From NCBI RefSeq assembly GCF_963921235.1, contig NC_086097.1, forward strand, positions 16,492,001 through 16,556,000: DNA of 64,000 nucleotides, given 5' to 3'. Below, in pieces: positions 4,051 through 58,614 of this stretch. Made by a program: the position numbers and the translations under genes. A model generated the notes under the pieces. The model saw nothing but the letters and a program-made list of their open reading frames with translations, ran no database searches and had not been told where the DNA came from. The DNA is from Mobula hypostoma (Eukaryota). Position 1 is the stretch's first letter, and the number at the start of each line of letters is the position of its first letter.

Positions 4051-4170
4051 AGCTTTATGCTAAAGAATTCTGCAAGAGTCATTTTCTTTCACTAACATTA
4101 TAAGCCACAGGGCAGACATTACCTTTTTTTTTCAAAGAGTAATTGCAGTTTGACTGTCTGCAGAACTTAT

Positions 4171-6420: not shown

Positions 6421-7844
6421 ACTGTTATAACAACTTAAGTAACTTATGTACTGTTATAACAACTCCCAGCATTGATAAACACTGAGCTCTTCCTCATAAT
6501 AACCTTTTGGTGAAAAGCGTTGACACTGGCCTATGATTAGGACACATGGATTTACAAGGAATAAATTAAGCACAGAAGAGACACTTACAAGGAAGAAGCT
6601 TGCACGATTCTTCTATATTATCAATGAAGGACAATTCTCAGCAACTTTCAAAGAAACATTAGAAAGCTCAAACACACTTGCACAGGTTGCCAAATGCTTT
6701 GCTTGATCACTCAGGTGAGCTGCATACATCCAGATTTGGAATTACGCAAATCGCAAGGGAGTTGCACTTATTGCTAAGAGTAAAATGTTGTTTAAGAGTA
6801 AAGATGTTGTAGCAGCGCACATATATTACCCCATACCATACAGAAGGTAGATTGCTCTATCTAAAATTATGTTAGTTTTTTTTTTAGTATTACAATGGTT
6901 GTAATGTCACTTACTTCTAATTAATTTTCAAAAAGAGTTCTTAATTGTGTTGCCTTAGCTATTTTCACTCTATTTGGAGGTCTTCAGAGCTAAGTACAGA
7001 TAACAGGTAAAGATTATACCTGTTAGCCCCATAACCTGTTATACCTGGGCGAACTACCTACACTGTACATTATGTTCATACTACAGATCTACTGGTTGAA
7101 AATTTCATTTGTACTGTAGACTAAGTGGAGAACTACAAGTCTTTGTGCGGAAAAGGATTTAAACAGGAGACTATTGCTGAGTCTTCTCCAAAAGACTTAG
7201 GTTGTTGAACACAAAGCTGGATACCCTGTAAATCCAAAATGGAATGCTGTCTTAACAAGAATAACTCTAAAATACCAGTTCTTAAAGTTAATAACACAGA
7301 AGAGTTGTTGGCAAATCAAAGAGTATAAAAGGAGAAAAATACCAGCACACTTTGGCTTCCCCACACTTCTGGTTCAAGCTGTTCATGGAACAAATAAAAA
7401 AAAGGTTTGATATGATATTCCAATTACCATGGGAACCTATGACATTCAGACAAACAGAAAGTCTGTTTATGGCTCTTCAGAACCTCTGGAGCCTTGCACT
7501 AAATGCCCATATTGAACAAATTTCTCTCCAAGCAGAAATGACCTTGAATTGCTTTATCCATAAAACTGATTTATCATGTTGGGGCAATGAGAACAGAACT
7601 TACAATGAAGGAGGTGGCTGACTTTTTAAAGAACTGCATTCTGTGTAGTTGTAGTGGCTCTGATACAATCCAGTGCATATTTCACAATTTCTTACGGTAA
7701 TGGAGTTGGATGTTTGTCCTAGCTAGTCCAGGCCTCATGCAAAGCATTCTCATTCTCACATTTAATTCCAGATCACCCATTCTCTGTCGTAATCCAACAA
7801 GCTTTCTGACACTCCTGATAGCCATGTAGCAATTTAGATTCTAG

Positions 7845-25180: not shown

Positions 25181-28100
25181 GTCAAGTCAAATTTATTTAT
25201 AAAGCATACTTAAAAACCCAAGTTGACCAAAGTGTGTACAAACCATAACAGGTAGCTAAAAATCATAAATACAAGAAACACAGATATAAACAACAAAGCA
25301 CACAGCTTAGAGGCACAAAATAAACAACACACGAGCCTAGGCACAAGCCAAAAATCAGCCACATCAGGAAGATTCAAACGCTGGTGAATAAAAGTAAGTT
25401 TTGAGCCTGACTGAAAAGAGTCAATGGAGGGGGCAGATCTGATAGGGAGGGGAACACTGTTCCACAGTCTAGGGGCTACAACAGCAAAAGCGTGGTCACC
25501 CCGGAACTTAAATTTAGATCGCGGGACAGCCAGGAGCCCCAAGTCAGCCGAACTGAGGGACCTGGAAGTAGAATAAGGGGTTAGAAGGTCTGCAATATAG
25601 GAGGGGGCCAGCCCATTTAGGGCTTTATAAACAAACAGGAGTACCTTAAAATCAATTCTAAACTGTACTGGTAGCCAGTGGGGAGAGGCCAGGATGGAAG
25701 TAATATGGTCCCTCTTCTGGGCACCTGTCAGGAGCCTGGCTGTGGTGTTCTGGACCAGTTGCAGATGGGACAGGGGCAACTGACTAATCCCAGTAGACAG
25801 GGAGTTGGAGCAGTCCAAGCCGGAGGATATAAGGGCGCGGATGACTTTCTCGAGATCTTTGAAAGAGAGAAATGACTTGATTTTGGCAATAGTACGAAGC
25901 TGGAAAAAACTGGCTTTTAATACTGCATTAAATTGTTTGTCAAACTTAAAGGCGGAATCAAATATCACACCAAGGTTTTTGACAGGGGGTTTGACAAGGG
26001 TAGGCAGGTTACCAAGACCGTTGGTAATCACTTTGATGGAGTCAAAGGGGGCCAAATAGGACAACTTCAGACTTGCCTTCATTCAGCTGTAGGAAGTTTT
26101 GTGCCATCCAACACTTTATGTCCTCAAGGCAGTTCATGAGGCTGACTAGATTTGACTGGTTGTTTGGTTTCAAGGGGAGATAAAGCTGTGTATCCTCAGC
26201 AGAACAATGGAAGGAAATATCATGTTTTTGAATGATTTGGCCGAGGGGAAGCATGTATATAGAGAAAAGAATGGGACCTAGGATGGAACCTTGTGGGACC
26301 CCACAGGAGAAACTAGCTGGAGAAGAGGAAAATTTGCCTATGTTGACGGAGAAGCTTCTATTTTTGAGGTAGGATGTGAACCAGTTCAAGGCAGTGCCAT
26401 CAACACCAACCCCATACTGGAGACGGTCTATTAAAATGGCGTGATCCATAGTATTGAATGCTGCGCTGAGGTCAAGAAGAATTAGGATGGCAGAGTCACC
26501 TGAATCAGTAAAGAGGAGGAGATCATTGCACACTTTCAGCAGGGCAGACTCTGTGCCATGATAAGCATTAAACCCTGACTGAAATCTTTCCAAGATGTTG
26601 TTTTGGTGTAGGTAGGGCAGCAATTGACTAAGAATAACCTTTTTGAGAACCTTTGCCAGGCATGCAAGTTTAGAAATAGGTCTATAGTTACTAGGTAAGG
26701 TAGGGTCTAAGTTGGGTTTTTTCAGGAGGGGCTGGACCACGGTGCGCTTGAAGCAGGTTGGAACGGTCCCTGTGGCCAAGGAGCTGTTGATAATAGAGAG
26801 GATGCTGGGACTGGCTACGTCAAAGACATCCTTCAGGAGGACAGTGGGGACAATGTCAAGGGGGCAGGTTGCAAGTTTCATGGTGGAAACAATCTTTATA
26901 AGGGAGAGCAGCGTGATGAGTTGGAAACAGTCCAGTTTAGATGAACAGACCGGTGAGACAGTTCGGCCATGGGTGGGGGGGGGGGGCGGGGGGGAGATGT
27001 TCATTCTAATGTCTTTAACTTTGCTAATGAAGAATTTTAAAGATTCTTTGCACTTAGCAGGGGAAACATCTAAACTAACACTGGGGCACTGGGGACGGGA
27101 CAAATGACAGAATTTATGGTACTGAATAAGACCTTGGGATTACGAGAGTTGATAGAAATCAGGTCAGAAAAGTATTTTGCTCTTGCAGCCTTAACTGCAT
27201 CCTGATATTTGTGAAGATTGTATCTCAAAATTTCAAAGGGAATTTGAAGCTTATCACGCTTCCACTTTCGTTTGGATATTCTGCACTCTCTCCTCTGGTG
27301 GTGTCATGGAGCCGAGGCAGACCTTTAGGCTTAGGCTTTTTGAATTTAAGGGGAGCAACAGTATTCGGAATAGAAGAGCAGGTGGTATTAAATAAGTTCC
27401 TCAGTGCTGAGATGGGGGGGGGGAGAAGCCTCAATAGTGCAGGTATTAGGAGCAGCCATGAGTGCCTCAGAGAAATCACTGGCAGTCGAAGAGTTAATGT
27501 AACGACAGCAACGTACAGGAAGATGAAATTTAGTTGGGGAAAAGGGCAGAGAAGCACCAAACATAACAGCACTGTGATCTGACAGACACGCATCAATTAT
27601 TTCCACATTGCAGATTGAAAAACCAGACGATAAGACCAGGCCAAGTGTGTCGCCTAGCATGTGAGTGGGTCCGGTGATAAGCAAAGCAAGATTAAAAGAC
27701 TCAAGCAGATGCATAAAATCACTTACGAGAGGCTTAGCGGGACAGCAAACATAAATATTAAAGTCACCAAGAATCAGAACTCGATCAAAGTTGGGCATAG
27801 TGTTTGAGAGGAAGTCCGCAAATTGAGTGATAAAATCTTCATGTATTTTTGGTGGACGATACACAACAGTAATTAAGAGGGGAGTGACCAGGCCCACTTT
27901 AATTAATTGCACCTCAAAGCTGGGGAAATAATCAGAGTTCAGTAGACGGCAATTAAAATGTTTCTTAAGCACAGTGGCTAGACCTCCTCTGCGTCTGGAG
28001 GGTCTAGGCATGCTAACAAAGTTACAGTCATCTGGACAGAGTTCAACAAGTGCAGCAAGCTCACCAGTGCTTAACCAGGTTTCCGTCACCAGTAAGAAAT

Positions 28101-28800
28101 CCAATCCTTGGGCGGTGAAAAAGTCACTAAGAATAAAAGTCTTATTGGATAAGGATCTCGCGTTGATCAGAGCCACTTTGACTGGGATAGTAGTATAATC
28201 TGACAACGGCTCCCTCGCCAGAGGGCGGAGGGTACAGAAGACTACTCCACCGCACTTCACAAATGGCCTGGTGGGGAGCCCGCAAGGCAGCAGTCTGGCA
28301 TCCAGGTCTGTGTCTGGGATAATCGGTTGGAGAAAGGCGTACCTGGTCTCAAGGGAGCACCGAGGAATGGAGTGATGTGCCTGAACAGGTCCAACATCGT
28401 CAAGCTGCAAAAAGTAGACCGGTGCTGAGCGACAGCGGGCAAGATTCCTCACCTTAACCGAGGTGACCGCACATTTATTTCGTCTCCTAGCTCATTTCCT
28501 ATGGTGGTAGCCGCAGGGCCGAGCCCATATACCTTCAGGTAGTTGGGAAAATAGAGAGCGGTGAAAGGCTCTTTGTCCAGAATCCTGAGTGAATAAGTCC
28601 ACGACAGAGGTTCGAATATTCAGTAGTGTTTGACGATCGTAGACAATAGTGGCTTGTACATCATGTATACACAGAGACACAAACAGAGCCAGGACAAACA
28701 AGAACGGCAATAGGCAACGACAAGCAGCCAAACACAGTGGCGTGGCGATGATGTAAATCCAGGCATCCAGGAAAAGAACACTGGCAGGGAAGTCACACAC
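25181..28800 (-). mobile_element. Near full-length L2-clade LINE, frameshifted
   Basis: Leader ORF (IVYDRQTLLNIR), APE endonuclease (LINARSLSNK, VTETWL, VYRPP, GDFN), RT (NYRPIS, LDLSAAFNT, GVPQGSILGP), L2 C-terminus (HWLPVQFRIDFK, AFAVVAPRLWN); tail ATAAATAAATTTGACTTGAC. Confidence 0.93.
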
Positions 28801-36547: not shown

Positions 36548-36694
36548 TTAGAAATATTTAGTTCGGTTCAATGCTCGCTGTGCTAATTCGCCTTTTTCAT
36601 CTGTAATTTTCTCCCAGTCTGTTTGTCCAACCACAAATCCTATGGCTCGTTTGCGCTCAGCATCTTTCTCCTCTTCCAAATCTGCCCATCTCAC
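36548..36694 (-). CDS. YLPM1: YLPM1 last coding exon F, up to the TAA stop; the exon continues to a donor after 36515
   Basis: ctag|GTG AGA TGG...TTC TAA; VRWADLEEEKDAERKRAIGFVVGQTDWEKITDEKGELAQRALNRTKYF*; completes the RVRW PP1-docking motif. Confidence 0.95.
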   Translation of the reverse strand: MRWADLEEEKDAERKRAIGFVVGQTDWEKITDEKGELAQRALNRTKYF

Positions 36695-39016: not shown

Positions 39017-39150
39017 CCGCTTCTTTCCAGGTTCTGATGAGCGAGAGTTATAGTCATCAGGAAGCTGAAGGTAATCTTCTAATTGGTGTGCAATACTGTC
39101 ATGCCAACCTCGCTTCCGTTTGTTGCTGCTCCTCAAACCATCCAGCTTGT
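39017..39150 (-). CDS. YLPM1: YLPM1 coding exon E
   Basis: ttcag|AC AAG...CGG|gtaaaa; 134 nt; (D)KLDGLRSSNKRKRGWHDSIAHQLEDYLQLPDDYNSRSSEPGKKR. Confidence 0.93.
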
Positions 39151-40914
39151 CTGAACAACAAAAACATAGGCTCTGTAGTCAGGCATGGACTGAATGCACA
39201 AGATGAAAGAAATATATGTATATATTCATACAAATATACATACATGTATATGGTGTTACAGTTGAGCTCATAGTTGAACACCCTTGTTGTATTTAATAGC
39301 TGATTGGCCATAAAAATAGCAAGGAATGGATTATTGATGTAGTCCATTAACTTATAAGTCAGGTTCTTCTTTAAACCCATTAGTGTTTCTATATTATTGT
39401 ACCAACACAATTCTCATTGATTATAAATTTTCTGTATAAATTTTCCCAACTAACGGTAAAGTTTTTGCAAATAGATGCATTGAGAGGACAGAAAACCAAC
39501 CTATAATATTTATATTTTACCGCTGAAGTTTAACTTAAAAGAATTGGTCCTAATTAGAGTTGACAGTCATGTGCATCTTGGAAATGTAAATTAAACATGG
39601 TTTGTGTAGGATATTAGTTTTTAAACCCCATCTGTAGGATTCAGATAGTGCACAATTATGTCAGAAAAGTTTCAGAACAATATTTAAAAAATGCAGTGGG
39701 TATTCCTGGGAAGAAACTAAGTGAAGGTTAAACTGTAACATTGACATTCTTAAGATATGACAATCATCAGCTAGTAGTGTGTGAATTCATCTTTATCACC
39801 GAATGACACAGAATGTTTTACATGATACCACGATACCAAAGTAAATCATGAATTAGAACAAACACATGAAAATCACTTTTTGAAAATTACTACCTACAGG
39901 TAATATGCTTGCCATTTCAAACATTGCTTAACACCAAATAATGTGACCACAATCAATTCACATCATAAGGTAAATGTTACTTTACACAAAGAATACTTGC
40001 ATATGGTTTCCTGGGCTCAATTAAAGGCAATTTTTTTTAAAACAAACTGCTACTGCACTGGAAATATTGTAAAATAAATGTACATTATATATTGAGGGAG
40101 ACAATAATGTACATTACATTATTGAGGTTAAGTAATCCGTGATATCAAAGTATAAACCATTTTTTAAAATTCTGGAATACTTGGAAAAATGGACAAAACA
40201 TATGATCTAGAAAATAGATCTGAAAGAATAGGCGTAATTAGATAATGCATTTTAACCTCAGGAAATTTGCAAATGGCACTTCAGTCCAATTACCAAAATG
40301 CACTTTTCAGTGTGTTGTATTATTTATATAAGAGATTATCATAACTACTTCATTTCTTTTAAAATTAACTATGAACCAAATTGAAAATACAAACATTCAA
40401 GGTTGCATCACATTGAATTTACACAATCTTATTCTATGAAAAATACTGGCAGAGCTTGAAGTAATCAATCTATTGTTATCAGTAGAGTGCACTGAGTAGT
40501 GTAGTTATAAATGTACACTGCACTAATCAAAATTCACATCTGCAAGGTTGCTACAAAACAACTAATAAGTCTCATCACTGACTTATTAATATCGGTGATT
40601 TAAAGTTCACTGAAAAAATTCCATAGCAAGGAATGAAGTACAAATAAAAAGTATATTTCTTTAGCATTTGTTTTGAATGCAGTCCTTAAAGAAAGAACTT
40701 CATTAGTACCACCTTAAGTATTTTTGCTTGACTGAAGAAACTCTTCAAAAACTGGTAAATACATTTTCTTTAATTATTTATAGCGCCCCCAACGAGTCCA
40801 TATTTATATCACACACCTCCAAATGTTTCTGAACTGAGGTCAATGCTGGGCCATTTTAAATGCAATTAAGAGTCTGTCATGAGATTTGATACCCAAGTTT
40901 GATACCCAAAGTCA

Positions 40915-41562
40915 GCATGGAATGGGTGAGCAGCTTGAAGTTCCTGGGTGTCAAAATCTCAGAAAACCTATCCTGAACCCAACATGTTGATGCAATTATG
41001 AAGAAGGTATATCAGCAGCTGTATTTTATTAGGAGTTTGAGAACATATGGTATGTCACCAAAGACTTGAGCGAATTTCTACAGATATACTGTGGAGAGCA
41101 TTGTGATTGGTTGCATCACCCTCTTGTATGGAGGCTCCAATGAACTGAATCAGAAAAAAAATCTGAAGAAGGTTGTAAATTCAGACAGCTCCATCATGGG
41201 CACTAGTCTCCCCATTATCGAGGACATCTTCAACAAGGCAATGCTTCAAGGTGGTGGCATCCATCATGAAGGTCCCTCACCATCCAGGGCATGCCCTATT
41301 CTCATTACTACTATCAGGGAGGACGTACACGAGCCAGAAGACACACAGTCAATGTTTTAGGAACAGATTCATCCCCTTCACCATAAAATTTTTGAATAAT
41401 TTATGAATCCACAGATACGACCTTGCTATTTTGCTCTCTTTTTGCACTAGTTATTTATTTTTATGTATATTCTTATTGTAACTTATAGAAACTGCATTGT
41501 ACTGCTGCAAAACAACAAATTTCTTGACATGCGTTAGTGATAATAAACCTGATCCTGGTTCT
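40915..41562 (+). mobile_element. Rex/Babar LINE 3' fragment
   Basis: ESIVIGCIT, LPIIEDIF; tail gataataaacctgatcctggttctga. Confidence 0.85.
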
Positions 41563-41943
41563 GAGATGAGTTAAAGATTGCAGGTTTCCTTTCCAAAAGG
41601 TCAACAGTAAGCCCTATGAGCTTTGAATGATAGTCATGCAGTTTTAAACATTACTGTTTTATTCCAGAATTTTACTGAATATTTGTCCAGCTACCAAACT
41701 GGGATTTAAATTCAATCTCTGAATTATTTTCCAGACATATGAATTGCTTGTCTACTAAAATAAATGTTTTACTATTGCACCCAGAACTGCTTTAAGTGGC
41801 TGTAAAAATATTTCATATTATGGTGAACCTTCCCACCTTTCATCTTGTCTGATGCTATTTCATTTTGTTCTTTAATTAGAGACCAAGAGTTTCCACCATT
41901 ATTTGTGTGTGGTGTTGCTAAGGTGACAATAAAGAAGCTCATG

Positions 41944-42153
41944 CAAAACACACAAAATATAGAGGAACTATCAAGTCTGGCAGCATCCAAAGGACGAATA
42001 AGCAGTTGACGTTTCAGGCCGAGACCTTCCTTGAGGATTCAGTCCTACATGTTGACTGCATTCATCCATCGATGCTGCCTGACCTGCTGAGTTCCTACAG
42101 CACTTTGTGTGTGTTGCTTTGGATTTCCAGAATCTGCAGAATTTTTCGTGTTT
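41944..42153. mobile_element. Penelope-derived palindromic (fold-back) short element with a degenerate hammerhead
   Basis: Left arm acacacaaaa...gcagttgac is an imperfect reverse complement of right arm gttgactgc...tttgtgtgtgt; homologous to 43901-44007. Confidence 0.75.
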
Positions 42154-42834
42154 ATAAAGAGGCTGGTGACCACTTTGCAAGTCTGCCACATTTCTGCTGT
42201 ACATTTCTCTGAGTACATCTGTTCTCAATTTATAGTCCAAAGTTTCTGCCTAGTAGCATCATAATACGCCCTCCACAGATTAAATAGTTTTTCATACTGT
42301 CCAAGACTGTGGTAAAGGTCAGGGAGGTGTGGTTACTGTCTTTTAAATACTCACCACCGAGAGTGGCCTCTCCTCTAACTGGCCTGTCAGGAATCCTTCC
42401 TGGGCACACCCAACAAATTCTGCCCTATCTAAACCTTTTGTATTAAGGAGGTGCCAATAAATATTATAGAAGTTGAAGTCACCCATGACAACAACTTTGT
42501 TATTTTTGCATCTTTTCAAAATCTGCCTCCTGATCTGCTCCTCTGTGTCACCATTGCTATTAGCTAGGTCCCCACCTCTTTTTTGCCTCCCTCTCTGTCT
42601 CTTTTGAAACTTCTAAACCCCTGAACATCCAGCAGCCACTCCAGCAACTTGACAGCCATATGTTTTTGAAATGCATATTTAACGCTCCTAGTTCAAGTTA
42701 AATATCCTGCTTATGTCCAATTATTCTAATCATATTTAAGCAGGAAAAACATATGGATTCACTTATTGTATACCCAATAAAGTAATATTCAGTGAGTAAT
42801 ATTCCCAATGCTATTATAAGATGAAACAATACAT

Positions 42835-43725
42835 CACAGTCATAGAAAAGTACAGCACAGAAACAGGCCATTTGGCCCATCTGGTCCACACTGAACCATT
42901 TAAACTGCCCAATCCCACTGACCTACACTGAGACCAGAGCTCTCCATATCGCTATCATCTATGTACCTATCCAAACTTCTCTTTTTTTAAAATTTTATTT
43001 TTATTTGGATAAGGAATTCACAAGTATCATGTACTTTTTCACATGTATAACCTTTTCCATTTTTTTATATGTATAAAACTATAATTATTTATACATTCTT
43101 AAGTACACATTGAGATGATATAAAAGGAAATTAGACACTTAAATAGATAATTATGTACAGTGGTAATTCTAATCTATTAGGCTAAGTAATGGTATTAGTT
43201 GTTAAGAAAAATAGTAATAATAGTTTCCATATATCTCTTCTGGACCATTTCTACTGGTCCAAAATGTTGTATGTAAGCCTATGTAACAACCATTGTAGGT
43301 GTTTATATCCTAACTTGTTCATGCTTGCTCCTGCCCCCAGACATAATTATCCAATCCCTATGTACTTATTTACCTAATTTTATCATTTTTTTATCCAAAC
43401 TTCTCTTAAACGTTGAAATTGAGCTCACAGGTAACACTTGCGCTGGCAGCTCATTCCACACTCACGACTCTGCATGAAGAAGTTTCTGCTCATGTTCTCC
43501 TTAAACTTCTCACTTTTCACTCTTAGCCCATGACCTCTGGTTGTAGACCCATCCAACCTCAGTGGAAAAAGCCTGCTTGCATTTACTCTATCTACACCCC
43601 TCGTAATTTTGTATACCGCTATCAAATCTCCTCTCAATCTTCCAAGGAATAAAGTCCTAACGTATTCAATCTTTCCTTATAACTCAGGTCTTCCACACCC
43701 AGCAACATTCTTGTAAACTTTCCCT
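42835..43725 (-). mobile_element. CR1 3' fragment containing a nested poly(A) retroelement
   Basis: RGDLIAVYKI, TRGHGLRV; tail catagaaaagtacagcacag. Confidence 0.88.
42984..43391 (-). mobile_element. About 408-bp A-tailed retroposon of unidentified family
   Basis: 16-bp TSD TATCCAAACTTCTCTT (42968-42983, 43392-43407); the minus strand ends AATAAAAATAAAATTTTAAAAA. Confidence 0.8.
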
Positions 43726-43900
43726 GGCTTCAGTTTGTTAACTGTAACTAGTAAAATCTTTAAACATGAAAAAAAACATGTAGTTGCTATATTAACAATA
43801 CTAATAAAACAGAAAATCTACTAACTTTTGGTTTAAGATTCCCAACGTACTGGTTTGTAGATAGCAAGAACTATCTACAAACCTATCAAACTAATATGAA

Positions 43901-44007
43901 CAACATACATCAAAGTTGCTGGTGAACGCAGCAGGCCAAGCAGCATCTATAGGAAGAGGTGCAGTCGACGTTTCAGGCCGAGACCCTTCGTCAGGACTAA
44001 CTGAAGG
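43901..44007 (-). mobile_element. Penelope-like terminal fragment between 24-bp direct repeats
   Basis: ACAAACCTATCAAACTAATATGAA at 43877-43900 and 44008-44031. Confidence 0.8.
43963..43998 (-). ncRNA. Minimal type I hammerhead ribozyme motif (Penelope-associated type)
   Basis: Minus strand AGTC-CTGACGA-AGG(GTCTCGG)CCT-GAAA-CGTC-GACT: stem I, CUGANGA core, stem II, GAAA, palindromic ACGU stem III, GUC cleavage triplet. Confidence 0.8.
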
Positions 44008-44084
44008 ACAAACCTATCAAACTAATATGAAGTTTGATCCATGCATCCAAGTTAATAAAGTACAATGAATTTAAGTTGTACCAC

Positions 44085-46050
44085 AGAGGCAAAATTCAAA
44101 AGGGCGAAGAATGCAGGACTGAAGATGCTGTATTTAAATGCATGTAGCATTTGGAATAAGGTGGAGGAACTCATGGTGTAATTACAGATTGGTTGGTATG
44201 ATGTTGTGGGTGTCACTGATCTGTGGTTAAAAGAAGGCGATAGTTGGGAGCTTAACATCAAAGGATATACTTTGTATCACAAGGACAGGCAGGAAGGCAA
44301 AGGCGGTGGTGTGACCTTGTTGGTAAGAGATGGAATTACATCTTTAGAAAGAGGTGACATATGGTCAGAGAATGCTGAATCTTTATGGGTGGAGTTAAGA
44401 AACTGCAAGAGTTTAAAAAACATTATGGGAATCATATATAGGCCTCCAATTAGCAGTCAAAAGAAAAGATGAAATATTAGGGCAGACTAGCCAATAATAT
44501 AAAGCAAGATACCAAAAGATTTTTCAGTTACATAAAGAGTAAAAGGGAGGTGAGAGTTGATACTGGACCATTGGAAAATTATGCTGGTAAGGTAGTAACT
44601 GGGGACAAAAAAATGGCAGATGAACTTAATGGGTACTTTGCATCTGTGTTCATGGGGAAGACACTGGCAGTGTGCCAGAGATCTGTGAGTGTCAGGGAGC
44701 AGGAGTGAATGGCCTTGCTATTACCAAGGAAAAAGTGATAGGCAACTCAAAGGTCTTAAGACGGATAAGTCAACTGGACCAGATGGACTGCATCCCAGAG
44801 TCCCAAAAGCGGCTGCTGCAGAGATAATGGATGCATTGGTCATAATCTTTCAAAAATCACTTGATTCTGGCATGGCCCCAGAGCACTGGAAGATTGCAAA
44901 CTCTTTAAGAAAGGACGAAGGATTTATAGGCCAATTAGCCTAACCTCAGTGGTTGGGAAGGTGTTGAAGTCTATTATTAAGGATGAGATTTCGGGGTATT
45001 TGGAGATTAATGACAAAATAAGCCAAAGTCAGCATGGTTTCTATAAAGGGAAATCTCGCCTAACAACTCTGTTAAGAGATCTTCGAGGAAGTAATATGCA
45101 AGGTGGACAAAGGAGAGGCAGTGGATGTCATTTACTTGGATTTTCAGAAGGCATTTGATAAGGTGCCATACATGAAGCTGCTAACAAGATAAAATCCTTT
45201 GGCATTACAGGAAAGATACTGGCATGGATAGTGGAATGGCTCACAGGCAGGAGGGAGCGAGTGGGAATAAAAAGGGCCTTTTCTGGTTGGCTGCTTGTGA
45301 CTAGTGGTGTTCCTCAGGGGTCAGTATCGAGAATGCTACTTTTGGCATCGTCTGTCAATGATTTGGATAATGCAATTGATGGCTTTGTAGCAAAGGTTGC
45401 AGAAGATGGGGGAAGGGTATGTAGTGCTGAGGGCTGCAGAAGCACTTAGACAAATTGGAAGAATGGGCAAAAAAGTGGCAGATGGAATACAATGCTGGGA
45501 AATGTATGATAATGAATTTTGGTAAAAGGAACAATACTGCAGAGGGACTTTGGAGACCTCTTGCAAGACTCCCAGAAGGTTAATTTACAAGTTGAGGCTG
45601 TGGTAAAGAAGGCAAATGCAATGTTGGCATTTATTTCAAGGAGAACAGAATATAAAAGCAGAGATAATGCTGAGCCTTTGTAAGACACTTATCAGGCCGC
45701 ATTAGGGGTATTGTCAACAGTTTTGGGCCCCACATCAGAGAAGGGATGTGTTGTCACTGGAGAGAGTCCAGAGGAGGCTGACGAGGATGATTCCGGGAAT
45801 GAAGGGGTTAACAGGTGAGGAGTGTTCAGCAGCTTTGGGCCCGTACTCACTAGAATTTAGAAGAATGCCTGGGGATCTCATTAAAACCTACTGAATATTG
45901 AAAGGACTAGATTGGGTGGATGAAGTGGAGAGGATGTTTCCTCTGGTATCTAGAACTACAGGGCAAAGCTTCAAAATTGGGGGTGGGGGAGAAGCCATGA
46001 CGGAATGGTGGAGCAGACTCGATGGGCGTAATGGTCTAATTCTGCTCCTA
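44085..46050 (+). mobile_element. CR1 LINE, decayed, with internal deletions
   Basis: GVTDLWL, IYRPP, KSTGPDGLHPRV, VTSGVPQGSV. Confidence 0.9.
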
Positions 46051-48517
46051 CACTTCTTGACACAGTATTCTATTTGCCACTTCTTTTAACATTCTCTTAA
46101 TCTGTCAAAGTCTTTCTGCAGCATTCTTGCTTCCTTAACACTAGCTGCCCCTTCACCTATCTTTGTATCGTCCATAAATTTGGCCACAAAGCCATCAATT
46201 TCATCATCCAAATAATTGACATACAACATAAAAAGAAGCGGTCCCAACAACCATCCCTGTGGAATGCCACTTGTCACCAACATCCAATTACAAAAAGCTC
46301 CTTTATTCCCACTCTTTGTCTCCTGCCAATCAGCCAATCCTTGAGCTATGCTGGTATCTTTTCTGTAATAGCACAAGATCTGATCTTGATAAGCAGCCTC
46401 ATGTACGATACTTTTCAAAGATCTTCTGAACATCTTTGATCCATCAATTCGCCTTTGTTTATCCTGCTTGTTATTTCCTCAAATAATTCAAACAGATTTG
46501 TCAGGCAAGATTTTCCATTAAGGCAACCATGCCGAATTTGACCTATTTTATCATGGGCTTCCAAGTACTCCAAAATCACATCCTTAACAATTGACTCTAA
46601 AATCACATCCTTTACAATTGATTCCAACATCTTCCCAACCACTGAGGTCAGGTTATAATTTCCTTTCATGTGCCTCTCTCCTTCTTGAAGAGTGGAGTGA
46701 CATTTGCAATTTTCCATTCCTCCTGAACCACTTCGGTACCTAGTGATTCTTGATGGGATCATTACTAATAACCCCACAATCTCTTAAGCTACCTCATTCA
46801 GAACCCTGGGGTCTAGTCTACATGGTGAAGGAGACTTATCCACCTTCAGACCTTTCAGTTTCCCAATCACCATCTCCTTAGTATTTGCAATTACACTCAC
46901 TTCTGTCCCCCGACCCTCTAGAACTTCTGGCATACTGGCCTTGTCTTCCACAGTGAAGACTGATGCAAAATACTTGTTCACTTTGTCCACCATTTCCTTG
47001 TCTCCCACTACTAGCTCCACAATGTCATTTTCTAGCAGTCCAATACTTATTCTTGCCTTTTACCCTTTATATATCTGAAAAAATGTTTGGTATTCTCTTT
47101 GATGTTGTTGGCTAGTTTACCTTCATAATTCATCTTCTTCCCCCCTCCCCCCAAGGTTTTTTCACTTGCCTTCTGTTGGTTTTAAAATGTTCCCCAATTC
47201 TCCAACTTCCCAATTTTTGTTCTGTTACATGCCTTCTCTTTTGCTTTAATGCTGGCTTTGACATCCCTTTTTACCCACAGTTGTGTCGTTCTGCCTTTAG
47301 TATACTACTTCTTCTTTGGGATGTATCTATCCTGCACCTTCTTAACTGCTCCCAGAAACTTCAGCCATTGGCTGCTTTGCCATCATCCCTGTCAGTATCC
47401 CCTTCCAATCAACTTTAGCCAGGTCTGTCTCATACCTCTGTAATTCCCTTTACTCTATGTTTACTGATAAATTTGATTTAACTTCTCCCTTTCAAACTGC
47501 AGGGCAAATTCTGTTATGATTACTGCCTCCTAAGGGTTCCTTAATCAAATCCAGTTCATTACGCAACACCCAATCCAGAACAGCTGATCCCCTAGTGGAC
47601 TTAACCCTAATCTGCTCTACAAAGCCATCTTGTAGGCATTCTACAAATTCTCTCTTTTGGGATCCAGCACCAACCTGATTTTCTCAATATACCTGCATAT
47701 GAAATCCCCCATAATTATTGTAACATCGCCCTTTGAACATGTTTTTTCTATCTCCCATTGTAATTTGTAGCCCACATCCTGGCTACTATTTGGAGGCCTG
47801 CATACAACTCCTATTAGGGTCTTTTAACACTTGCAGTTTCTTAATTCTAACCACATGGATTCTACATCCTCCAATCCTATGCCACCCCCTCTGCCTACAT
47901 GGCTGTCCTTTCAATACAATGTGTACCCTTGGGTGTTATGCTCCCATCTATAATGTTCTTTCAGCCACGACTCAGTGATGCCTGCCAATCTCTCACTGCG
48001 CAACAAGATAATCTACTTTATTCCATATGCTACATGATTCAAAGATAACATGGTTAGTTCTGTATCCGTAGTCCTTTTCAATTTTGTCCCCGTTACACTG
48101 CAATTCATCCCACTGATTGCAATTTTGCCCTGTCACCTACCTGTCCTTTCTGATGTTCTCACTATACACTTCCTCTGCCTGTAAAATAATAGTCATATCA
48201 TCAGCCCTATCACCCTAGTTTCCAGTCCCCTGCCACATTAGTTTAAGCCCTCCACAACAGTTCAAGTAAACTTGTCCACTCTGGTTCAAGTCTAACCCAT
48301 TCCTTTTGTACAGGTCATACCTTCCTTAGAAGAGATCCCAATGATTGAGAAATCTGAAATGCTGTTCCCTGCACCAGTTTTTCAGCCATGCATTCATCCG
48401 CCAAATCATCCTATGTTTCCCCTCACTGGCACGTAGCACAGGTAGCAATCCAAAGATTTCTACCCTGGAGGTCCTACTTTTTGGCTTTCTCCCCAACTCC
48501 CTAAATTCTCTCTTCAT
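46051..48517 (-). mobile_element. CR1 LINE, decayed, 3' end missing; reaches the ORF1 esterase-like C-terminus
   Basis: TSGIPQG, KFMDDTKIG, KYFASVFT; ORF 48326..48517 (MNAWLKNWCREQHFRFLNHWDLF) resembles CR1 ORF1. Confidence 0.9.
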
Positions 48518-49809
48518 CTTTGTACAGATGCTGCTTCACCGGCTCGGTTTTCTAGCATTTTCAACCTTTGCTTCATATTAGTAGCATCTGTAGTGCTTTG
48601 AATTTTATTCCCAAGACCCTTACTGTTCACAAGATTTAGTATCTTTTAGAGAAACTCTGCAGTTTAATTTATTATGTCACTCTCCAATTAAGATTTGTCA
48701 ACAATCCTGTAAGATTATAAATTTCTTTAGGTAGCTATTTTATTATTTGTTCTTAGTTCAGGGCATGAATCTCATGGTGGATAGTGGATGTTAAATTAGC
48801 TGTAACGATGATACTCTTTCATCTTCTTTCATTACTCCAGCAATCCACATTTCTAAGAATGACAAGATGCAAAGATGTCCAATGTCACCAACTAAAGTAT
48901 TTTGAGTATCCTAAAGTGAAACATAGAGATATGAGATATGAGATTGGACAATATCTTCAACTTGTCCATTCCTTTTCCTTGGAATCATCATTAAAGTCCA
49001 TGGTCCTTTGCATAGAATGTTTGCATTCAAACAGAAATGCAAAAGTGAAATAACTGGCGCACCTACCACAACAGTGCCCAGTTACTCTGGATCTGAAAGT
49101 TGTGCCATTCCATTAAAAGCAATTTGTATGCTAAATTTAGATAATATTTTGTAAATCTGGCTGCTGTAATTACATCTGTCATATTAACAATCTGATTAAA
49201 CAAATGACATTAAGTGTAACCATTGACAGAACTCCATGGTATGGAAATCCAATAACCAACAATACACTAAAAATTTTCAACAAGTTAGTAGCATCTGAAG
49301 AGACAGATATAGCATTACTGTTTCAGTTTAATAACCTATTAAAAATCCAACTTCTCTTTTCTTAATATAGGCAATGGAAAGACCAAGTGTACCATCATGT
49401 AAACAATTAGTTGAATTTGTATCACTCTGCAATTTTACTCAGATTCAATACAGGATGTCAGATTAATATCGAAAGACATTGGAAAATGTGCTCTCTACAT
49501 TCATAGAGACTCTAAATGATCATTATTGAAAAATCATATTCAGTTGACATTTATAAAATACCCAAAGATTATTCAATGTGATTAAGACCAAGTATTTCAT
49601 TGTAGTTGCTTTGTGCAGAAATGCAAGTAAATTAAAAATATATTTCTTAAATTAATGGAAGTATTCAAAAGGTGAGAGTCAGCATACTTGCAGGTTGACA
49701 ACTCTATTTTATCCACAATTTATAAGTAAATTGAAAATTATTGGGAAAAGAATCCCACATACTGTACATGTATATAACAAATTCACATTACCAGACAGCA
49801 AAAAAAAAG

Positions 49810-52670
49810 TCATAGTCATAGAGCAATAGAGCATAATACAGGTTCTTGGCCCAATGAGTCTTTACTTTATTGTCACCAAACAATTGATACTAGAGCATAC
49901 AATCATCACAGCAATATTTGATTCTGCGCTTCATGCTCCCTTGAGTACAAATCGACAGTAAATATTAAAAATTTAAATTATAAATCATAAATAGAAAATA
50001 GAAAAGGGGAAGTAAGGTAGTGCAAAAAAACCGAGAGGCAGGTCTGGATATTTGGAGGGTACGGCCCAGATCCGGGCCAGGATCCATTCAGCAATCTTAT
50101 CACAGTTAGAAAGAAGCTGTTCCCAAATCTGGCCGTACAAGTCTTCAAGCTCCTGAGCCTTCTCCCGGAGGGAAGAGGGACAAAAAAATGTGTTGGCTGG
50201 GTGGATCGTGTCCTTGATTATCCTGGCAGCACTGCTCTGACAGCATGTAGTGTAAAGTGAGTCCAAGGACGGAAGATTGGTTTGTGTGATATGCTGGGCT
50301 GTGTTCATGATCTTCTGCAGTTTCTTCCAGTCTTGGACAGGACAACTTCCATACCAGGTTGTGATGCACCCTAGAAGAATGCTTTCTACGGTGCATCTAT
50401 AAAAATTAGTGACGGTTTTAGGGGACAGGCCAAATTTCTTTAGCTTTCTCAGGAAGTAAAGGTGCTGGTGGGCCTTCTTGGCAGTGGACTCTGTTTGGTT
50501 GGACCAAGTCAAGTCATTTGTGATACTGACCCCGAGGAACTTAAAAGCTTTTGACCTGTTCCACTTGCACACCACTGATGTAAATGGGGTCATGCGGTCC
50601 GCTGCTCCTTCTGAAGTCAAAAACCAATTCCTTCGTCTTGCTGACGTTGAGGGATAGGTTATTGTCTTCGCACCATGCCACCAGGTTCTTAATTTCCTCT
50701 CTGTACTCAAACTCATCATTACCCAAGATACGTCCTACAATTGTGGTGTCATCAGCAAACTTATATATTGAGTTTGATGGAAACTTGGCTACACAATCAT
50801 GGGTGTACAGGGAGTACAGCAGGGGGCTGAGTACACAGCCTTGTGGGGCACCAGTGCTCAGAGTGATTGTAAGGAGAGCTTGTTCCCTATTTTTACAGCC
50901 TGGGTCCTGTCTGTGAGGAAGTTGAAGATCCAGCTGCAGATCTGAGTGCTAAGGCCCAGGTTCCGGAGCTTAGGAATCAGTTTATTTGGAATGATGGTAT
51001 TAAAGGCAGAGCTGTAGTCAATGAAAAGGAGCCTTACATATGTGTCTTTATTCTCCAGGTGTTCTAAGGAGTAATGTAGGGCCAGAGAGATAGCATCTGC
51101 CGTTGACCTGTTGCTCCTGTAGGCGAATTGCAAAGTGTCGAGGTTGACCAGTAGGCTGTGGTTGATGCGTGCCATAACCAATCGCTTGAAGCACTTCACA
51201 GCAATTGATGTCAGAGCCACAGGTCGATAGTCATTCAGGCATGCCACCTTGCTCTTCTTCGGCACTGGGATTATTGTTCGTCAGCAAACACTCCGGCAAG
51301 CTCGCTTGCACAGGCCTGGACAACCCGTCCCGGGACACTATCTGGGCCCATCGCCTACCTTGGATTTATCTTCAGGAAGGCCCTTCTAACGTCCTCCTTG
51401 GTGATGATGAATCTCGATGCCACCAGGTCCGGTTCATCCGGAGGGAGTGGTACTCTCTTCTGTTCGGATCTTGCATAGAATACATTAAGTTCGTCAGGAA
51501 GAGAAGCGCCACAGTTACTGATATTCCCAGCCTTTCCTTTGCGCCCAGTGATCTCATTTAGACCCTGCCATAGTCTACCGGCATCCCTCTGGTTAGCCTG
51601 GGCTTCCAACTTGGCTCGATATTGCCTCCTGACGTCCTTAATGGCTTTCCAGAGTTCACGCCTGGATTCTGTGTAGCGACTGGTATCCCCGGACCTAAAA
51701 GCCACAGCTCTAGCCTTCAAAAGGGACTTGACTTCATAATTCATCCAAGGTTTCCGGTTAGGGAATACCCAGATCGTCTTGCGAGACACACAGTCCTCTG
51801 TGCATTTCCAGTCTATGCTGCTCACCTAGGCAGCTCCAATTTCAGTAAATGGCCATGCCCCTCTATGTAGCTTTTCAACAGCTACCTCAGTGATGCTGTA
51901 GCTGCCTCAACCACTTCTTCTGGGAGCTCATTCCATAAACTCACCACCCATTGTATGGAAAAGCGGCCTCTCAGGAACCCTAAATGTTTGTCCCCTAGTT
52001 TTGGACTCCCCTATCCTGGCATAAACACTACCATTCATCTTATTGCTGCCTCTCACAATTTTAAACACTTCTATAAGAGTCACCCCATGAATACACTCTA
52101 ATGAATAAGGAGCTAGCCCACCTCTCCCTACAACTCAGGTTGTCTTGAACACAGTACAATACAGGCTCTGTGGTCCATAATACTGTACCAACCTTTGAAC
52201 CTACTATAAGATTAATCTTACCCTCTTTTCCCTCCCACATGGACCTCCATTTTTCTATCATCTATAAGCCTATCAAAGAGTTTCTTAAATATTCCAAATG
52301 TATCTGTCTCTTTAGCAGAGTGTTCACACACGCAGCACACCCTATGGAAAAACTTACCTCTGACATCCCCTTATACTTTCCTCCAGTGTCAAAATTATGT
52401 TTCCTGGTATTAGCCATTTCAGCCCTGGGAAATAGTCTCTGACTATCTACTTGATCTATGCCTCTTATCACCATGTATGTCTCTATCAAGTTGCCTCTCA
52501 TCCTCCTTCGCATCAGAGTAAAGTCCTAGCTTGCTCAATCTACCTTCACAAGACATGCTCTCTAGTCCCGGCAATATCCTTTTAAATCTTTTCTGCACTC
52601 CTTCCAGTTTAATCACAGCTTTCCTACAACAGGGTGACCAAAACTGTACCTAGTACTCCAACTGCACACT
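49810..52670 (-). mobile_element. CR1 3' fragments hosting a Rex/Babar insertion
   Basis: Tail catagtcatag...ggcccaatgagtc resumes at about 51811; RRMRGNLIETY ORF at 52262..52513. Confidence 0.75.
49862..51809 (-). mobile_element. Rex/Babar LINE, 5'-truncated, relatively young
   Basis: [50 protein letters not shown] repeated at 49857-49861 and 51810-51814. Confidence 0.93.
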
Positions 52671-55600
52671 TACAATATTTAATATTAATAATATTTATAT
52701 TCAACAGTATATTGCATAGTATTTTTATTAGTATTTGCAAGCAAAGACTACACAACGAATACAAAATAAATAATTCAAATCAAATAAGTTTGTATGGTGG
52801 TGCTCCAAAGTAAAATGTGATTCTTTGGAAAAAAATGGAACACATTGAATCCTGCAAAGAAAGGCATTTGTACAAGATTATAGAGTAAAACTTTGGCTAA
52901 TGACTTCGTTCTCTGAGGGTTTACAAGGAAAAGTGCTCAGAATCAGGACACAGTAAATCTGTACCAATAAGCCTGCTTCAAAGCAAAACCTGGGAGAGCA
53001 GGAACTGTCATAAAAATTGCCATGTTTAAAGCTCTTGGGTGTAATTATTCTGATGTTAAGCATAACATGTAATTATGTCAGATAAAAGAGATATTCAAAT
53101 GTGAAATAAAGATATGTCTATTCTCTTTTACCTAATTTACCATATGGAATATTTTGTGTTTGCCTACCCCTAAAGAATTCCTAAGATTTGCCTACCAAAT
53201 GCATTTCATATTTTTTCTGACATTGTCAAATTCAAATGTATGTATTTAGATATACAAACATTTAATACACATCTAAGTTATGATGGTCTGTCTCTCTCAG
53301 AGGAACATTCATGTTGCTGCTCCATCCCTTTGAAGTGGTGAAGGTCACAATTTTCAAAAGTACTCTTTTAACGCAGGTTGAAGATGGTCATTTCTCTTCA
53401 GAAGTAACCTCCTATCCAGGTGGAGAGTATTCCATCACATTCCTGGCTTAAGATCTCTAGTTGGTGGAAAGAGGTTGAGGAATCATGTGTCAAGCATCAT
53501 GGAATATCCACTGTCCAACCCGTTCTTGCAGATATCTTATTTATGCTGTTGGTTAAATTAAGTTTCCAGTCAAGAATGCAATCCAGAATGTTGCTGGTTG
53601 GGGGCGTTCAGTGATGATAGGGAGAGAAGGTGGACTCTATATTATTCAAAATGATCACTGGCTGGCATGTGCGCGATGAAAATGCTACTTGTCATGCATC
53701 TGCCAAAAGCTGAATCTTGATAAGGCCATAAACTGCTTCATCATATGGTCAATACTATTTTGACCCAAGATGAAGTTAATTATCAGCAGTTAAATATCGG
53801 ACTGCCATAACATCATGATGGAGGAGTGACTGGCTTCCAAAATCTACATTTCAGAGGCAGATGATAAAGTCTGGAACTTCCAAAAATGTGTGATTGGTAA
53901 CATAAACCGATCAAGTTGAAGAACTAATTTTCATTGATGAAATATTTTTTGGCCAAATCTGCTTCTAAACCTATTGGAAAAGCACTGACAATCACCAGAC
54001 TTAACACATATAAAAACTGTTAACATTCAATACAAAGCAAAATGCTCATATTCCAATTCTGGCTTTATATTCATAGAAACCTAATCTTTTATCGTGAAAC
54101 TTTCTTTTGATCACAAACTCCCTAGAAATTTGACAACAGACTCAGCACAAAATCTTAAACAATAAGCATTCAGTTGCTCAATTGCTTTGGCCTAATATGG
54201 TGATTTTTAAAGTAAACAAACAATAATGATGTGCATGTATGAACTGACATAGTAAAAATGTCAAGAAATAGCATTCAAGACAACAAAATAATGAAGGAGT
54301 TCTTCTTCAAACCTTGAGTCAGATAAAGAATAAAGGCCACAACAGCTTTTCCAATACACAAAAGGTCCAATTTTGAGGCCTTGTTCCAAAAATAACTAGG
54401 CAGAAGCAGCTATGTCGCATCTCCCAGAGTAGCACCAGAAGGAAAGTCATTGCTTCCCCCGCCCAGAAAAATTCAGAATCCTTTTGATGACAAGATATAA
54501 TAAAGAAAACTTCACAGTATGTTTCTGTATACTCAAACCTACAAGACAGCTGTTCCTTTCCATCTGAATTTTAATTTTAAAAGCATGGAAACATACTATT
54601 GCAATTATGTGTTCATATGCACAATAGTCAAGTGAATCAATAATTAAGAAACATTATGTGTGATATCTCTTGCTCTATTTATGAGAAATATATTGAAATT
54701 ATTTTCAGAAATGCCTATAAATATTTGCATTCTTCAGGTGACTCACATTGTTCAGGTATTATAATAGGTTTATACGTGTCTCTGTGTTTAATGGAATTTT
54801 CTTTCATTGACGCAAACCTCATTTTTGTTTTACATTTCATTGTTTAATAGTAAACTGAGCGGTCACTGGTTCTAAAATGGTAGTTTTGGAGAGTGGGAGG
54901 AAATAAATTGTATCATTGCAATTTTGGCAAAACATTTGTGACAATTTTTAATATAGACTAAGTACTGTCATTACGTACAGTACATCTGTCACAGGATCAA
55001 ATTCTACACATCATATCTTGCATTAAGTGACACCTATAGAAGTGCAACATGACCAAACCAAACAATAGAAAAAATATATGGAAAGCATTTTCAAAAATAA
55101 ATATGAAAACTGTTTAATCCATATATATTGGCAATGATTATTATCTTGAGACAATGGACAAACATTATAAAAACATGAAGAGTCATAGATTTTTCATACA
55201 GGTTTTTACAAAGCAACAGTTTTAGGATGCAAACTTTGCATCTGCCAATGCTTAATGCTGACTAGACAACCATAAGCCACTGTCACAATCATCGCAAACC
55301 CCACCCACCATTGCTGGTCTGCTATTGTTTGCTAAGCATTTGTCTAAGTGCACTGGATATTTACAACAGAATTTCCAGGACCATCTATAAAGTTTTAATC
55401 AATATTCCAATTAATTTTATGATAACAGATATTAAATCTCGCATTTTGATTTAGGAATTACCCATTGACTTCAGAAATCCACGATCAAACAAACACAAAG
55501 AGGACATAGACAATGGCTTAATCAAGTTGATTGCCACAGATTCAATGATATTTGGCTCCAAGGTTGAACATCCTTGAGTTGATGCTTAGGATAATAGAAA

Positions 55601-55817
55601 GGGCAGAATACTTTGATTACTGAGAAGTGCACAGGTTGGAACAGCAGATATTGCAAGGTTATAAAGAATTATGCAGAATTCTGAGGCAAATTGTCATAAT
55701 AAGTTATTTATATCAGAATGCAACCAAAGCTTTAAAGGTGATCAGCTTATTTTTGAAAGATTGAATGTTGAGGTTGATTAAGTCTGGAGTACACCTTGGT
55801 TCCTTAAGGTTATAGCT

Positions 55818-56372
55818 GGGGGTGGTAATGGGGACAAGCTCCCATTATCTGTTAAATGCTCCCAATAGCGTGCACCTCAAAAAGCCTCGAAAACCAAGTC
55901 TAGCTCCCAGCCTTCATGTGTGGCTTAGCTGCTAAGCCCAGCAGAAATGTTCCTACTGACAGGAGAAAGGGCATAGGCAGGTTACTAGCGCCTTAAAAAC
56001 AGTCGCTTTGTGCAGATGGGGCTCATCAGCCGTGGTTGGCAACTCATCTAGGAGAAGGAAAACTCTGATCTCAAACCTCTGCTGCTTTGCAGCTATACCT
56101 ACTCATGGGGAAGGTTTTCAGAATAAACCTCAAGAGAAAAATCTGGAGTTGGAGTCTCTAAGGCAGTCCTACATTGAGTTCAATGTTCAATGCTAACTGG
56201 CAACTCCTGCGATGACGTTGGTACCAAACTGTATTGGGCTCTGCTGTTCCTTTAGGTTCATCAAATACATGGCTACATGGGCAACAGCTTGCTTTCCATA
56301 TCGTACTGCCCAGGCATGCGTATCTAGGCAGCTAGGACGCAATTTCCATTGTCAGCTCTGACTGCTGGAGGC
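55818..56372 (+). mobile_element. RTE-related non-autonomous (SINE-like) element, apparently near full length
   Basis: Contains CTCATCTAGGAGAAGGAAAACTCTGATCTCAAACC; second copy inverted at 3670-4050; no coding ORF. Confidence 0.65.
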
Positions 56373-56419
56373 ACACACTGTAAATAAAAATGCCTTCATT
56401 TGTAAGACAAATTGTAAAA

Positions 56420-57612
56420 AGCTAATCAAAAAGCTTCAAAACTTTGGCATCAGTATCTCCTTGTGCAATTGGATCCTCAATTTCCTCATTTGTCAGTTCA
56501 GAGTGGCAAAAAACATCTCCTTCACAATCTCTATTAGCACATTTGCGTAACGGTGTGGGCTTAGTCCTCTGCTCTGCTAGCTTACACTTATAACTGTGAG
56601 GCTAAGGACAGCTCCAAGGCAACATTAATTTTGATGACAACACCACTGTCATTGGCAGAATCAAAGGTGATGACGATTCAGCATAGAGGAGGAAGATCGA
56701 AAATCTGACTGAGTGGTGCCACCACAACATCTTCTCAATCAACGTCAGCAAGACCATGGAGTTGATTACTGACATCTGGATGTGAATAAACTGGAGGTCC
56801 ATGAGCCAGTCCTCATCAGGTAGGGGTGGAGTCAGAGGTAGAGAGTGTCAGCAACTTTAAATTCCTCAGTGTTATCATTTCAGAAAATCTGTCCTGGATC
56901 CAGCATGTTAAGTGTCATAATGAAGAAAGAACAGTGCTACCTCCATATCCTTTTGAAATCTGTGAATATTTGGCATGACATCTAAAACTGACAAACTTCT
57001 ATAGATGTGTGGTGCAGAGTATATTGACTGGTTGCATCACGGCCTGATATGGAAACACCAATACCCTTGAAAAAAACGTAATGGATACAGCCCAGTCCAT
57101 CACTAGTAAAGCCCTTCCCACCCTTGAGCACATCAACATGGAACGCTGTCACAAGAAAGCAGCAACCATTATCGAGGACTCCCACTATCCAGGCCATGCT
57201 TTCTTCTTGCTGCTGCCATCAGGAACAAGGTACAGGAGCCTCAGGACTCACACCACCAGGTTCAGGAACAGTTATTACCTCTCAACCATCAGGCTCTTGA
57301 ACCAGAGGGGATAACTTCACTCAGATTCACTTGCCCCATCATTGAAATGTTCCCATAACTTATGGACTCACTTTCAAGGACTTCATCTTATGTACTCAAT
57401 ATTTATTGTGTATTTATTTATTTATTTACTTTTCCTTTTTTTTGTATTTGCAGTTTGTTATCTTTGCCACTTTGGTTGTTTGACCGTTCTACTGGGTGTA
57501 GTCTCTCATGGATTCTATTGTGATTCTTGGATTTACTGTGTATCCCACAAGAAAATGCATCTCAGGGTTGTATATGGTGACATATGTATTTTGATAATAA
57601 ATTTATTTTGAA
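56420..57612 (+). mobile_element. Rex/Babar LINE 3' fragment
   Basis: YPGHAFFLLLPSGTRYRSLRTHTTRFRNSYY; tail gataataaatttattttgaactt. Confidence 0.88.
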
Positions 57613-58562
57613 CTTTTAAAAATTAAAAGTTAACAAAAATTTGCATCACAAAGAGATTAAGTAGATAATTGGTCTATTTTTCATAAAATCTATTTAGTCA
57701 TACATTATAATCTTAATTAAAATGCAATACATCAATTTGACTGGTTAGCAAAATACTGTTCAACAGTAAGTTGCTAAATGAACTATACAAACATTCAAAA
57801 TGAGATTATGTTACAACCCTATTTCTAAGATACCAAAGTAATACAAGTACATAATTCTGAACATCAGCTAAACAGGAGTGTTCATTTTAGAAAAGTTGGA
57901 TATATTCGAATAACAATTACAAGGATTATGGTAGGTTGCTCAATCATTACTAAAATTTCAAATCCCTTGAGAAATAAAGAAACCTTGCTCACTGTCAAGA
58001 TTGTAGCACAGACCAGAGTAAAAGGTGCTACGACAGGTCATTATTACAGTTATAATAAACACTGCTTTAAAGAGTGAAAATATAATCAGATAGTTTTAAT
58101 TGAGGTCGTATTATATAAGAGTATCTTTTTTTCCTGATTGCCTAAAATCCATAAACTATTTGTTTAGTTGAAACCTTTTTTAAATTCTTAAATCAGAAAA
58201 GGCATAAATACACAAATAGTAATATCTGCATTCAGTACACTGAAGCATATATCCCACTTGAAGTATCCAGTACTAATGACAAGTTTACATATTTCAGTGC
58301 AATTTGATGTATTTTCAAGTTTAGCTATGCATACCATCTATTTTTCAGTGGCTGAAGTATTTTTATAGCACAGGATGGCAACAAAGTGATTACATTGTTT
58401 ATAGTAACATATTAGTATGCATTTAAGCTACATCCAATAAATTAAACCAAACATGTTATGGCACTGCACAAACCAGAATCTACTGATAAATCAACATTTT
58501 GTGTATTTCTTAAACCATGACCTTTCAGTCTATAAACAAAAATAAAGAGAAATCATACCTAC

Positions 58563-58614
58563 CTAGATTCTCTTCTGATGTGTCCATTTCCCATTTGCTT
58601 TTTGTCAGGAAACC
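58563..58614 (-). CDS. YLPM1: YLPM1 coding exon D
   Basis: atttag|GGT...CTA G|gtaggt; 52 nt; GFLTKSKWEMDTSEENL plus 1 nt; its phase joins exon E. Confidence 0.9.

Follow-up and report, generated by a model that had tools for sequence, protein, structure and literature searches.

Minimal type I hammerhead ribozymes (min-HHRs) have been described from the pLTRs of Penelope-like elements (PLEs), and in the experiments reported for them a single motif showed no detectable cleavage, with low activity in dimers and trimers (multimers) (PMC4209133). PLEs of the Neptune/Nematis type are marked by a CX2-5CxxC linker before the nuclease (PMC8557442), and PLEs are further marked by truncation at the 5' end, by copies in inverted orientation and, in some cases, by a tail of 30-40 nt (PMC8557442, PMC3846280). 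In the anole, the PLE hammerhead was reported to cleave only with the PLE protein and to be dispensable for insertion in vitro, and no RNA-seq ends were found at its cut site (PMC11167929). Type I hammerheads from PLE pLTRs also occur in non-LTR retrozymes, about 42-44% of whose Xenopus copies are given as lying in introns (10.64898/2026.07.22.740005). Finally, the hammerheads of RECK, CTCL and DTNB (PMC6155905) and the HDV-like ribozyme of CPEB3 (PMC10919898) lie in sense orientation in introns of conserved genes and, according to these reports, are conserved across amniotes or mammals.

We analyzed a 64-kb stretch of ray DNA (the window), in which an earlier note had pointed out a hammerhead motif in an intron of YLPM1 (Table 1). 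By five structural and positional features the motif belongs to the min-HHRs of PLE pLTRs (PMC4209133), and it would work as they do. It differs from those described in its short helix II (3-4 bp), in the G10.1-U11.1 pair of the dominant ray subfamily, where G-C is usual, and in number, as the ray family has at least 56,169 copies compared with the 4,000-9,000 given for coelacanth and Xenopus. Compared with the Neptune/Nematis PLEs (PMC8557442), the window copy is devoid of coding sequence. With the Poseidon PAc hammerhead of Anolis (PMC11167929) it shares the location in a vertebrate PLE pLTR, two 3' ends that define the tail, and AT-rich targets; however, PAc belongs to another clade, which lacks the Cys linker, and its activity was measured in Anolis, whereas the ray motif is known from its sequence. 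Like the hammerheads of non-LTR retrozymes, it derives from a PLE pLTR and occurs as solo monomers across chromosomes. A tandem retrozyme was considered and rejected, as the active form is described as needing at least two consecutive tandem units (10.64898/2026.07.22.740005) and the window has a single unit, the other copy lying 2 kb off with a broken core. The motif resembles the RECK, CTCL, DTNB and CPEB3 ribozymes in being an intronic element, oriented in sense, of a conserved gene; in contrast to their deep conservation, the YLPM1 copy appears young, is one of tens of thousands and falls in a class that is inactive as a monomer. Our literature search found no paper devoted to the ray PLE family or to a YLPM1 ribozyme; Repbase and Dfam lay outside that search, and the family may well be catalogued there. 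In a word search of one elasmobranch genome preprint, PLE, Neptune and Poseidon were unmentioned.

Table 1. Features of the YLPM1 region of the window and of the hammerhead-bearing insertion
Feature	Position	Strand	Remarks
YLPM1 last coding exon	36548..36694	minus	begins VRWADLE
YLPM1 exon downstream of intron	39017..39150	minus	ends GKKR, the first half of the PP1-docking motif
YLPM1 intron with insertion	39151..58562	minus	19,412 nt, GT..AG, exons joined in frame
YLPM1 exon upstream of intron	58563..58614	minus	from translation and splice sites
Older inverted pair of the same pLTR family	41980..42143		about 80% identical, diverged
Target-site duplication, element's 3' side	43877..43900		24 nt, identical to 44008-44031
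5'-truncated 3' pLTR of Penelope-like element	43901..44007	minus	107-nt insertion, from 13 nt ahead of the core
Minimal type I hammerhead motif	43963..43998	minus	intact core; stem III palindromic and without a loop; additional A ahead of stem II
Predicted scissile bond 3' of C17	43966..43967	minus	next 3' splice site 4.8 kb downstream; from hammerhead numbering
Target-site duplication, element's 5' side	44008..44031		24 nt

The host gene is YLPM1, as its last exon reaches 92% identity with YLPM1 proteins (178 hits in 206 candidates). The motif indeed lies on the strand transcribed as YLPM1 pre-mRNA, in a 19.4-kb intron with GT/AG ends and in-frame joining of its exons. Its description as the largest YLPM1 intron holds among the introns within the window; the 5' part of the gene falls outside. 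The PP1-docking peptide GKKRVRWADLE (PMC2587467) is divided between the two exons 3' of the hammerhead-bearing intron. Many decayed RT/endonuclease fragments, judged to be LINE-type by their translations and repeats, crowd both the window and the intron (1200-9800, 25200-28500, 44100-47700 and 50000-51800).

The hammerhead pattern matched once in the window and in none of 100 shuffles, and this result together with the tens of thousands of genomic copies rules out a chance motif arising from base composition. A looser CUGANGA..GAAA pattern matched 15 times in the window, with family context solely at 43994. Direct reading and hammerhead numbering confirmed the minus-strand letters, the full set of invariant core nucleotides and the predicted cut between 43967 and 43966 that the earlier note had given. 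The conserved boxes are CUGACGA (43994-43988), GAAA (43974-43971) and U16.1 with C17 (43968-43967), so that C3 is 43994, G5 43992, G8 43989, A9 43988, G12 43974, A15.1 43971, U16.1 43968 and C17 43967. With regard to the stems, AGUC/GACU stands as stem I and is extendable to 5+2 bp, whereas the proposed AGG/CCU register of stem II has a pair probability of 0.02 in the predicted fold of a 51-mer, against about 0.9 for a register in which an unpaired A, located between 9 and 10.1, is followed by G-U/G-C/G-C(/U-G). The latter register is the form published for such motifs, and it is the only one in which both C and U, the alternatives seen in the family at position 11.1 (C in 4,891 copies), can pair. 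Helix III consists of A15.1-C-G-U16.1, with nothing beyond the palindromic 15.2-16.2 pair, and the dimer-type architecture that had been proposed from the palindromic stem III is supported. A covariance-model scan of the window with Rfam, suggested earlier as a check with Hammerhead_1, returned seven matches at E<=5, none of them from a hammerhead family.

The motif begins 9 nt into a 107-nt insertion, which is bounded by an exact 24-nt direct repeat confined to these two sites within the window. The insertion ends at the shorter of the two 3' ends of the family and is without the tail of about 37 nt. In a comparison with 45 sampled matches, some of them double-counted via overlapping loci, it showed one mismatch in 107 nt with its nearest copies (L009 and L029), and it is 99% identical to ordinary family members. 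Because only 1 of 107 nt differs from the nearest relatives, the window copy is presumably young. The outer edge of the duplication is spanned by an inverted repeat (43852-43883) whose 13-bp arms match perfectly around a loop of 6 nt, and the duplication itself is longer than the 10-15 nt found elsewhere in the family; both features might stem from a repair event at the junction. The older pair of the same pLTR family carries, 2 kb downstream of the window motif, a minus-strand hammerhead with a broken CUGANGA box and a mismatch in stem I. With these defects it would be a poor dimer partner, and a dimer with this copy at 42.0 kb was rejected. In addition, tblastn of three pieces of PLE ORF against the window gave no hits, and thus the vicinity holds no autonomous PLE partner. 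Of 24 sequencing runs listed for the stretch, none was on record as RNA. Among the contigs of four of them, those derived from the family piled on the insert, none covered the unique flank 43855-43891 or bridged the site, and no joint indicated an empty site.

We then consider the element from which the insertion came. The loci sampled were the first 30 of 56,169 core matches. These 30 are alike from the core down to about +93 or +130, whereas the upstream cutoff is variable and reaches at least 1.5 kb; many of them run upstream into PLE coding sequence. Candidate duplications of 10-15 nt were found at 13 of the 30 (11 separate insertions, the 10-nt one being uncertain). Longer repeats at L019 and L029 are not target duplications and were excluded from this count. 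Ten loci with long upstream homology were picked and extended to 10 kb, and six of them hold family copies on both strands, as in the inverted arrangements described for PLEs (PMC8557442). One extended locus contains a 679-aa ORF (L033:3018-5054) that ends 0.3 kb before a hammerhead copy on the same strand, and the same order in other loci places the motif in the pLTR. The motifs of this ORF are DKG, YIDD, C-x4-C-xx-C (residues 546-554) and GIY-YIG (GVIY..YIG). Pfam gave RVT_1 at E=2.5e-5 and GIY-YIG at E=6e-4, neither of which reaches the curated cut-off, and one hit among five shorter pieces of PLE ORF; many of the top homologues of the L033 ORF are annotated with RT and GIY-YIG domains. Its closest named relatives are in Mobula (87-94% over about half of the query), Hypanus (78-81%) and sharks (67-70%); the family is thus spread over the elasmobranchs.

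The Penelope-like origin claimed for the motif is therefore upheld by the pLTR position and by the ORF with RT, Cys linker and GIY-YIG in longer copies. The source appears to be a Penelope-like element of the Neptune/Nematis type, an assignment by motifs and arrangement rather than by an RT tree. Of the two names, we take Neptune to be the likelier vertebrate clade for the ray element. We also noticed that two ray gene models, 'divergent protein kinase domain 1C' and 'chitinase domain-containing protein 1' (P0127 and P0151), contain 370-450 aa of this PLE ORF; these would be exonised or mis-annotated insertions.

Next, we counted the family in the 3.48-Gb genome by pattern. The exact 36-mer has 32,886 copies (16,386 forward and 16,500 reverse) and the 28-nt core with two free positions has 56,169 matches, with 0 for the backwards control of each pattern; these numbers correspond to an exact copy every 106 kb and a core match every 62 kb. 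Random placement gives 0.61 exact copies per 64 kb. Given 32,886 exact copies genome-wide, a motif in the window is expected from the repeat content of the genome. The window copy has the G-U pair at 10.1-11.1, as do the 32,886 36-mers, compared with 4,891 that have the canonical G-C; this excess is beyond that of CpG decay alone and probably reflects a change in the source element. The three commonest variants of the sequence after the cut (11,456, 11,596 and 7,387 copies; window 43957-43962 and stored loci) retain a 2-bp extension of stem I past a one-base bulge, a possible hint of structural constraint in the source elements.

We consider the window motif to be a dead-on-arrival fragment of a young and very abundant PLE of the Neptune/Nematis type and an ordinary, inert passenger in YLPM1, and we assign this reading a probability of about 90%. 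The GIY-YIG nuclease of the element would have nicked AT-rich intron DNA, reverse transcription would have started at the 3' end of the element and halted after 107 nt, just beyond the hammerhead, and repair would have left the 24-nt duplication. In the source element, the hammerhead presumably acts when transcripts carry it in tandem or when the protein of the element assists. By contrast, the lone copy in YLPM1 pre-mRNA, having no partner for stem III, would tend to misfold and be spliced out without meaningful cleavage. We attribute the intact core to the recency of the insertion and to maintenance of the core in the source elements rather than to a need of YLPM1. The earlier note had allowed for a neutral passenger of a recent insertion, and the 24-nt duplication, the single mismatch and the 32,886 identical copies all speak for it.

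The predicted folding also bears on this reading. The folding models, which omit tertiary contacts and Mg2+, give the cleavage-ready fold a probability of 1e-3 in the 51-mer and of 4e-7 to 6e-5 in the context of the intron. In the 51-mer, a GACG/CGUC helix pairs G5-G8 with C15.2-C17 at a probability of about 0.9. The double-hammerhead dimer was computed at -13.9 kcal/mol, compared with -24.4 for two monomers and -32.7 for an inactive dimer. For six copies with their native upstream pLTR the cleavage-ready probability was equally low (1e-7 to 1e-3), and thus the low values would describe the family rather than the window copy alone. Published monomers of the minimal-hammerhead class do not cleave unaided; this, the predicted folding, the solitary state of the window copy and its core-dead neighbor all argue against cleavage at this site. 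With 4.8 kb between the cut and the 3' splice site that follows, cleavage of the YLPM1 transcript would require a half-life of minutes in order to compete, as in the CPEB3 ribozyme, for which 2-3 min is the reported measurement (PMC10919898).

These values are relevant to the suggestion that the motif cuts nascent YLPM1 RNA before the exons encoding the PP1-docking motif. In its strongest form, the host would have co-opted an intronic ribozyme that is tuned to abort or reroute YLPM1 transcripts upstream of those exons, in the manner of CPEB3 or RECK. The motif is indeed in sense orientation and upstream of the GKKR|VRW exons, and domesticated intronic hammerheads derived from retroelements have been proposed for amniotes (PMC6155905). 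However, sense orientation is a 50:50 outcome, and random placement would give an intron of 19.4 kb 0.09-0.16 sense-strand copies, so that, counting exact 36-mers, about 9% of introns of this size, or one in 11, would carry one. The copy is 99% identical to its family and has neither a stabilized stem III nor any other change that would activate a monomer. Furthermore, domesticated ribozymes known so far show conservation between deeply separated lineages, and nothing at the YLPM1 locus shows such conservation. We therefore regard co-option as extremely unlikely. The weaker claim of cutting likewise found no positive support: the copy is a lone monomer, identical copies occur by the tens of thousands in both orientations, the one gene analyzed below shows no depletion of those in sense, and the papers cited report no cleavage by an unaided monomer of this class.

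To examine orientation, we used one 2.05-Mb gene on the plus strand (C1:22501319-24548163), which was set by six LamG-bearing exon clusters and which we call 'neurexin-like', a name that we assume from the domain layout and from synteny. We used six core-intact patterns without overlap, and the matches of each were listed to beyond the end of the gene. They gave 17 intact matches, nine sense and eight antisense (6+5 for the first four patterns, then 2+2 and 1+1); grouped by insertion, they are seven sense, seven antisense and one inverted pair. For the share of sense matches, the 95% interval is 0.28-0.77 (n=17, one gene). Strong purging of sense copies is thus excluded for this gene, and moderate depletion is still compatible with the data. 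We also observed that, on both strands, the family reaches about half its average density in this gene: the first four patterns gave 11 matches where 20.8 would be expected (p=0.014).

Core decay gave a different indication. In a comparison of CpG decay, 3,029 copies are dead at G8, compared with 4,568 loop-G variants and 5,050 variants at free position 7, so that loss of G8 has 0.60-0.66 of the frequency of tolerated CpG variants and is rarer by about a third. The hammerhead core thus decays in thousands of inserted copies, which speaks for the passenger reading, yet the decay is not fully neutral across the family, and this counts against it. Amplification of tolerated variants from the source elements, or context-dependent mutation, would explain the shortfall; weak retention of an intact core after insertion is a possible alternative cause.

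Another possibility is that cutting is a conditional side effect of the whole family. The YLPM1 copy, along with thousands of further copies in sense within introns, would be cut at a low rate by abundant PLE RNA in trans (as a double hammerhead) or through chaperoning by the PLE protein, for example in a de-repressed germ line, and this would be a burden rather than a device of the host. The rarity of G8-dead variants and the intact core of the window copy are consistent with this idea, as is the protein-assisted cleavage reported for the anole PLE (PMC11167929). In addition, the family sequence is abundant, with a summed depth of 1.6e5-6e5 over the insertion in three sequencing runs (X1-X3) that we guess to be of RNA. 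However, in the model the best inactive dimer is favored over the active one by about 19 kcal/mol, and the 17 matches show no sense depletion. The anole protein is also described as needing ORF sequence downstream of the pLTR for RNA-template activity (PMC11167929), and the window copy retains only about 65 nt past the cut site, which may be relevant here. Overall, we consider conditional cutting very unlikely, and the inert passenger remains our preferred explanation for the YLPM1 copy.

A broader scheme can be drawn from the same observations. In this ray lineage, one retroelement family would have scattered latent hammerheads by the tens of thousands, including thousands in sense within introns. 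Abundant RNA or protein of the element would activate them in trans to cut host pre-mRNAs throughout the genome, which would couple de-repression of the element to host expression. The G-U pair at 10.1-11.1 and the GACG/CGUC self-pairing of the dominant subfamily would then be attenuators that aid the spread of the family, and the YLPM1 copy would be an ordinary target. We think this scheme very unlikely to be correct. If trans or protein-assisted cleavage of host introns were true, it would be a new route for a retroelement to affect host RNA. In practical terms, a hammerhead-like motif in an intron of a shark or ray is best regarded as part of the repeat background, at about one per 62 kb in the ray genome, and a single locus matters little. 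Instead, the more than 56,000 near-identical copies, with thousands of natural G8-dead and tolerated variants, offer a modest test bed for cutting by PLE hammerheads in vivo. Among the first 100 G8-dead matches listed, two inverted pairs have both arms dead at G8 (C1:67638781-67639777 and C1:76984879-76987901); they may have arisen by gene conversion or by transposition of a ribozyme-dead template, and their number is near the chance expectation.
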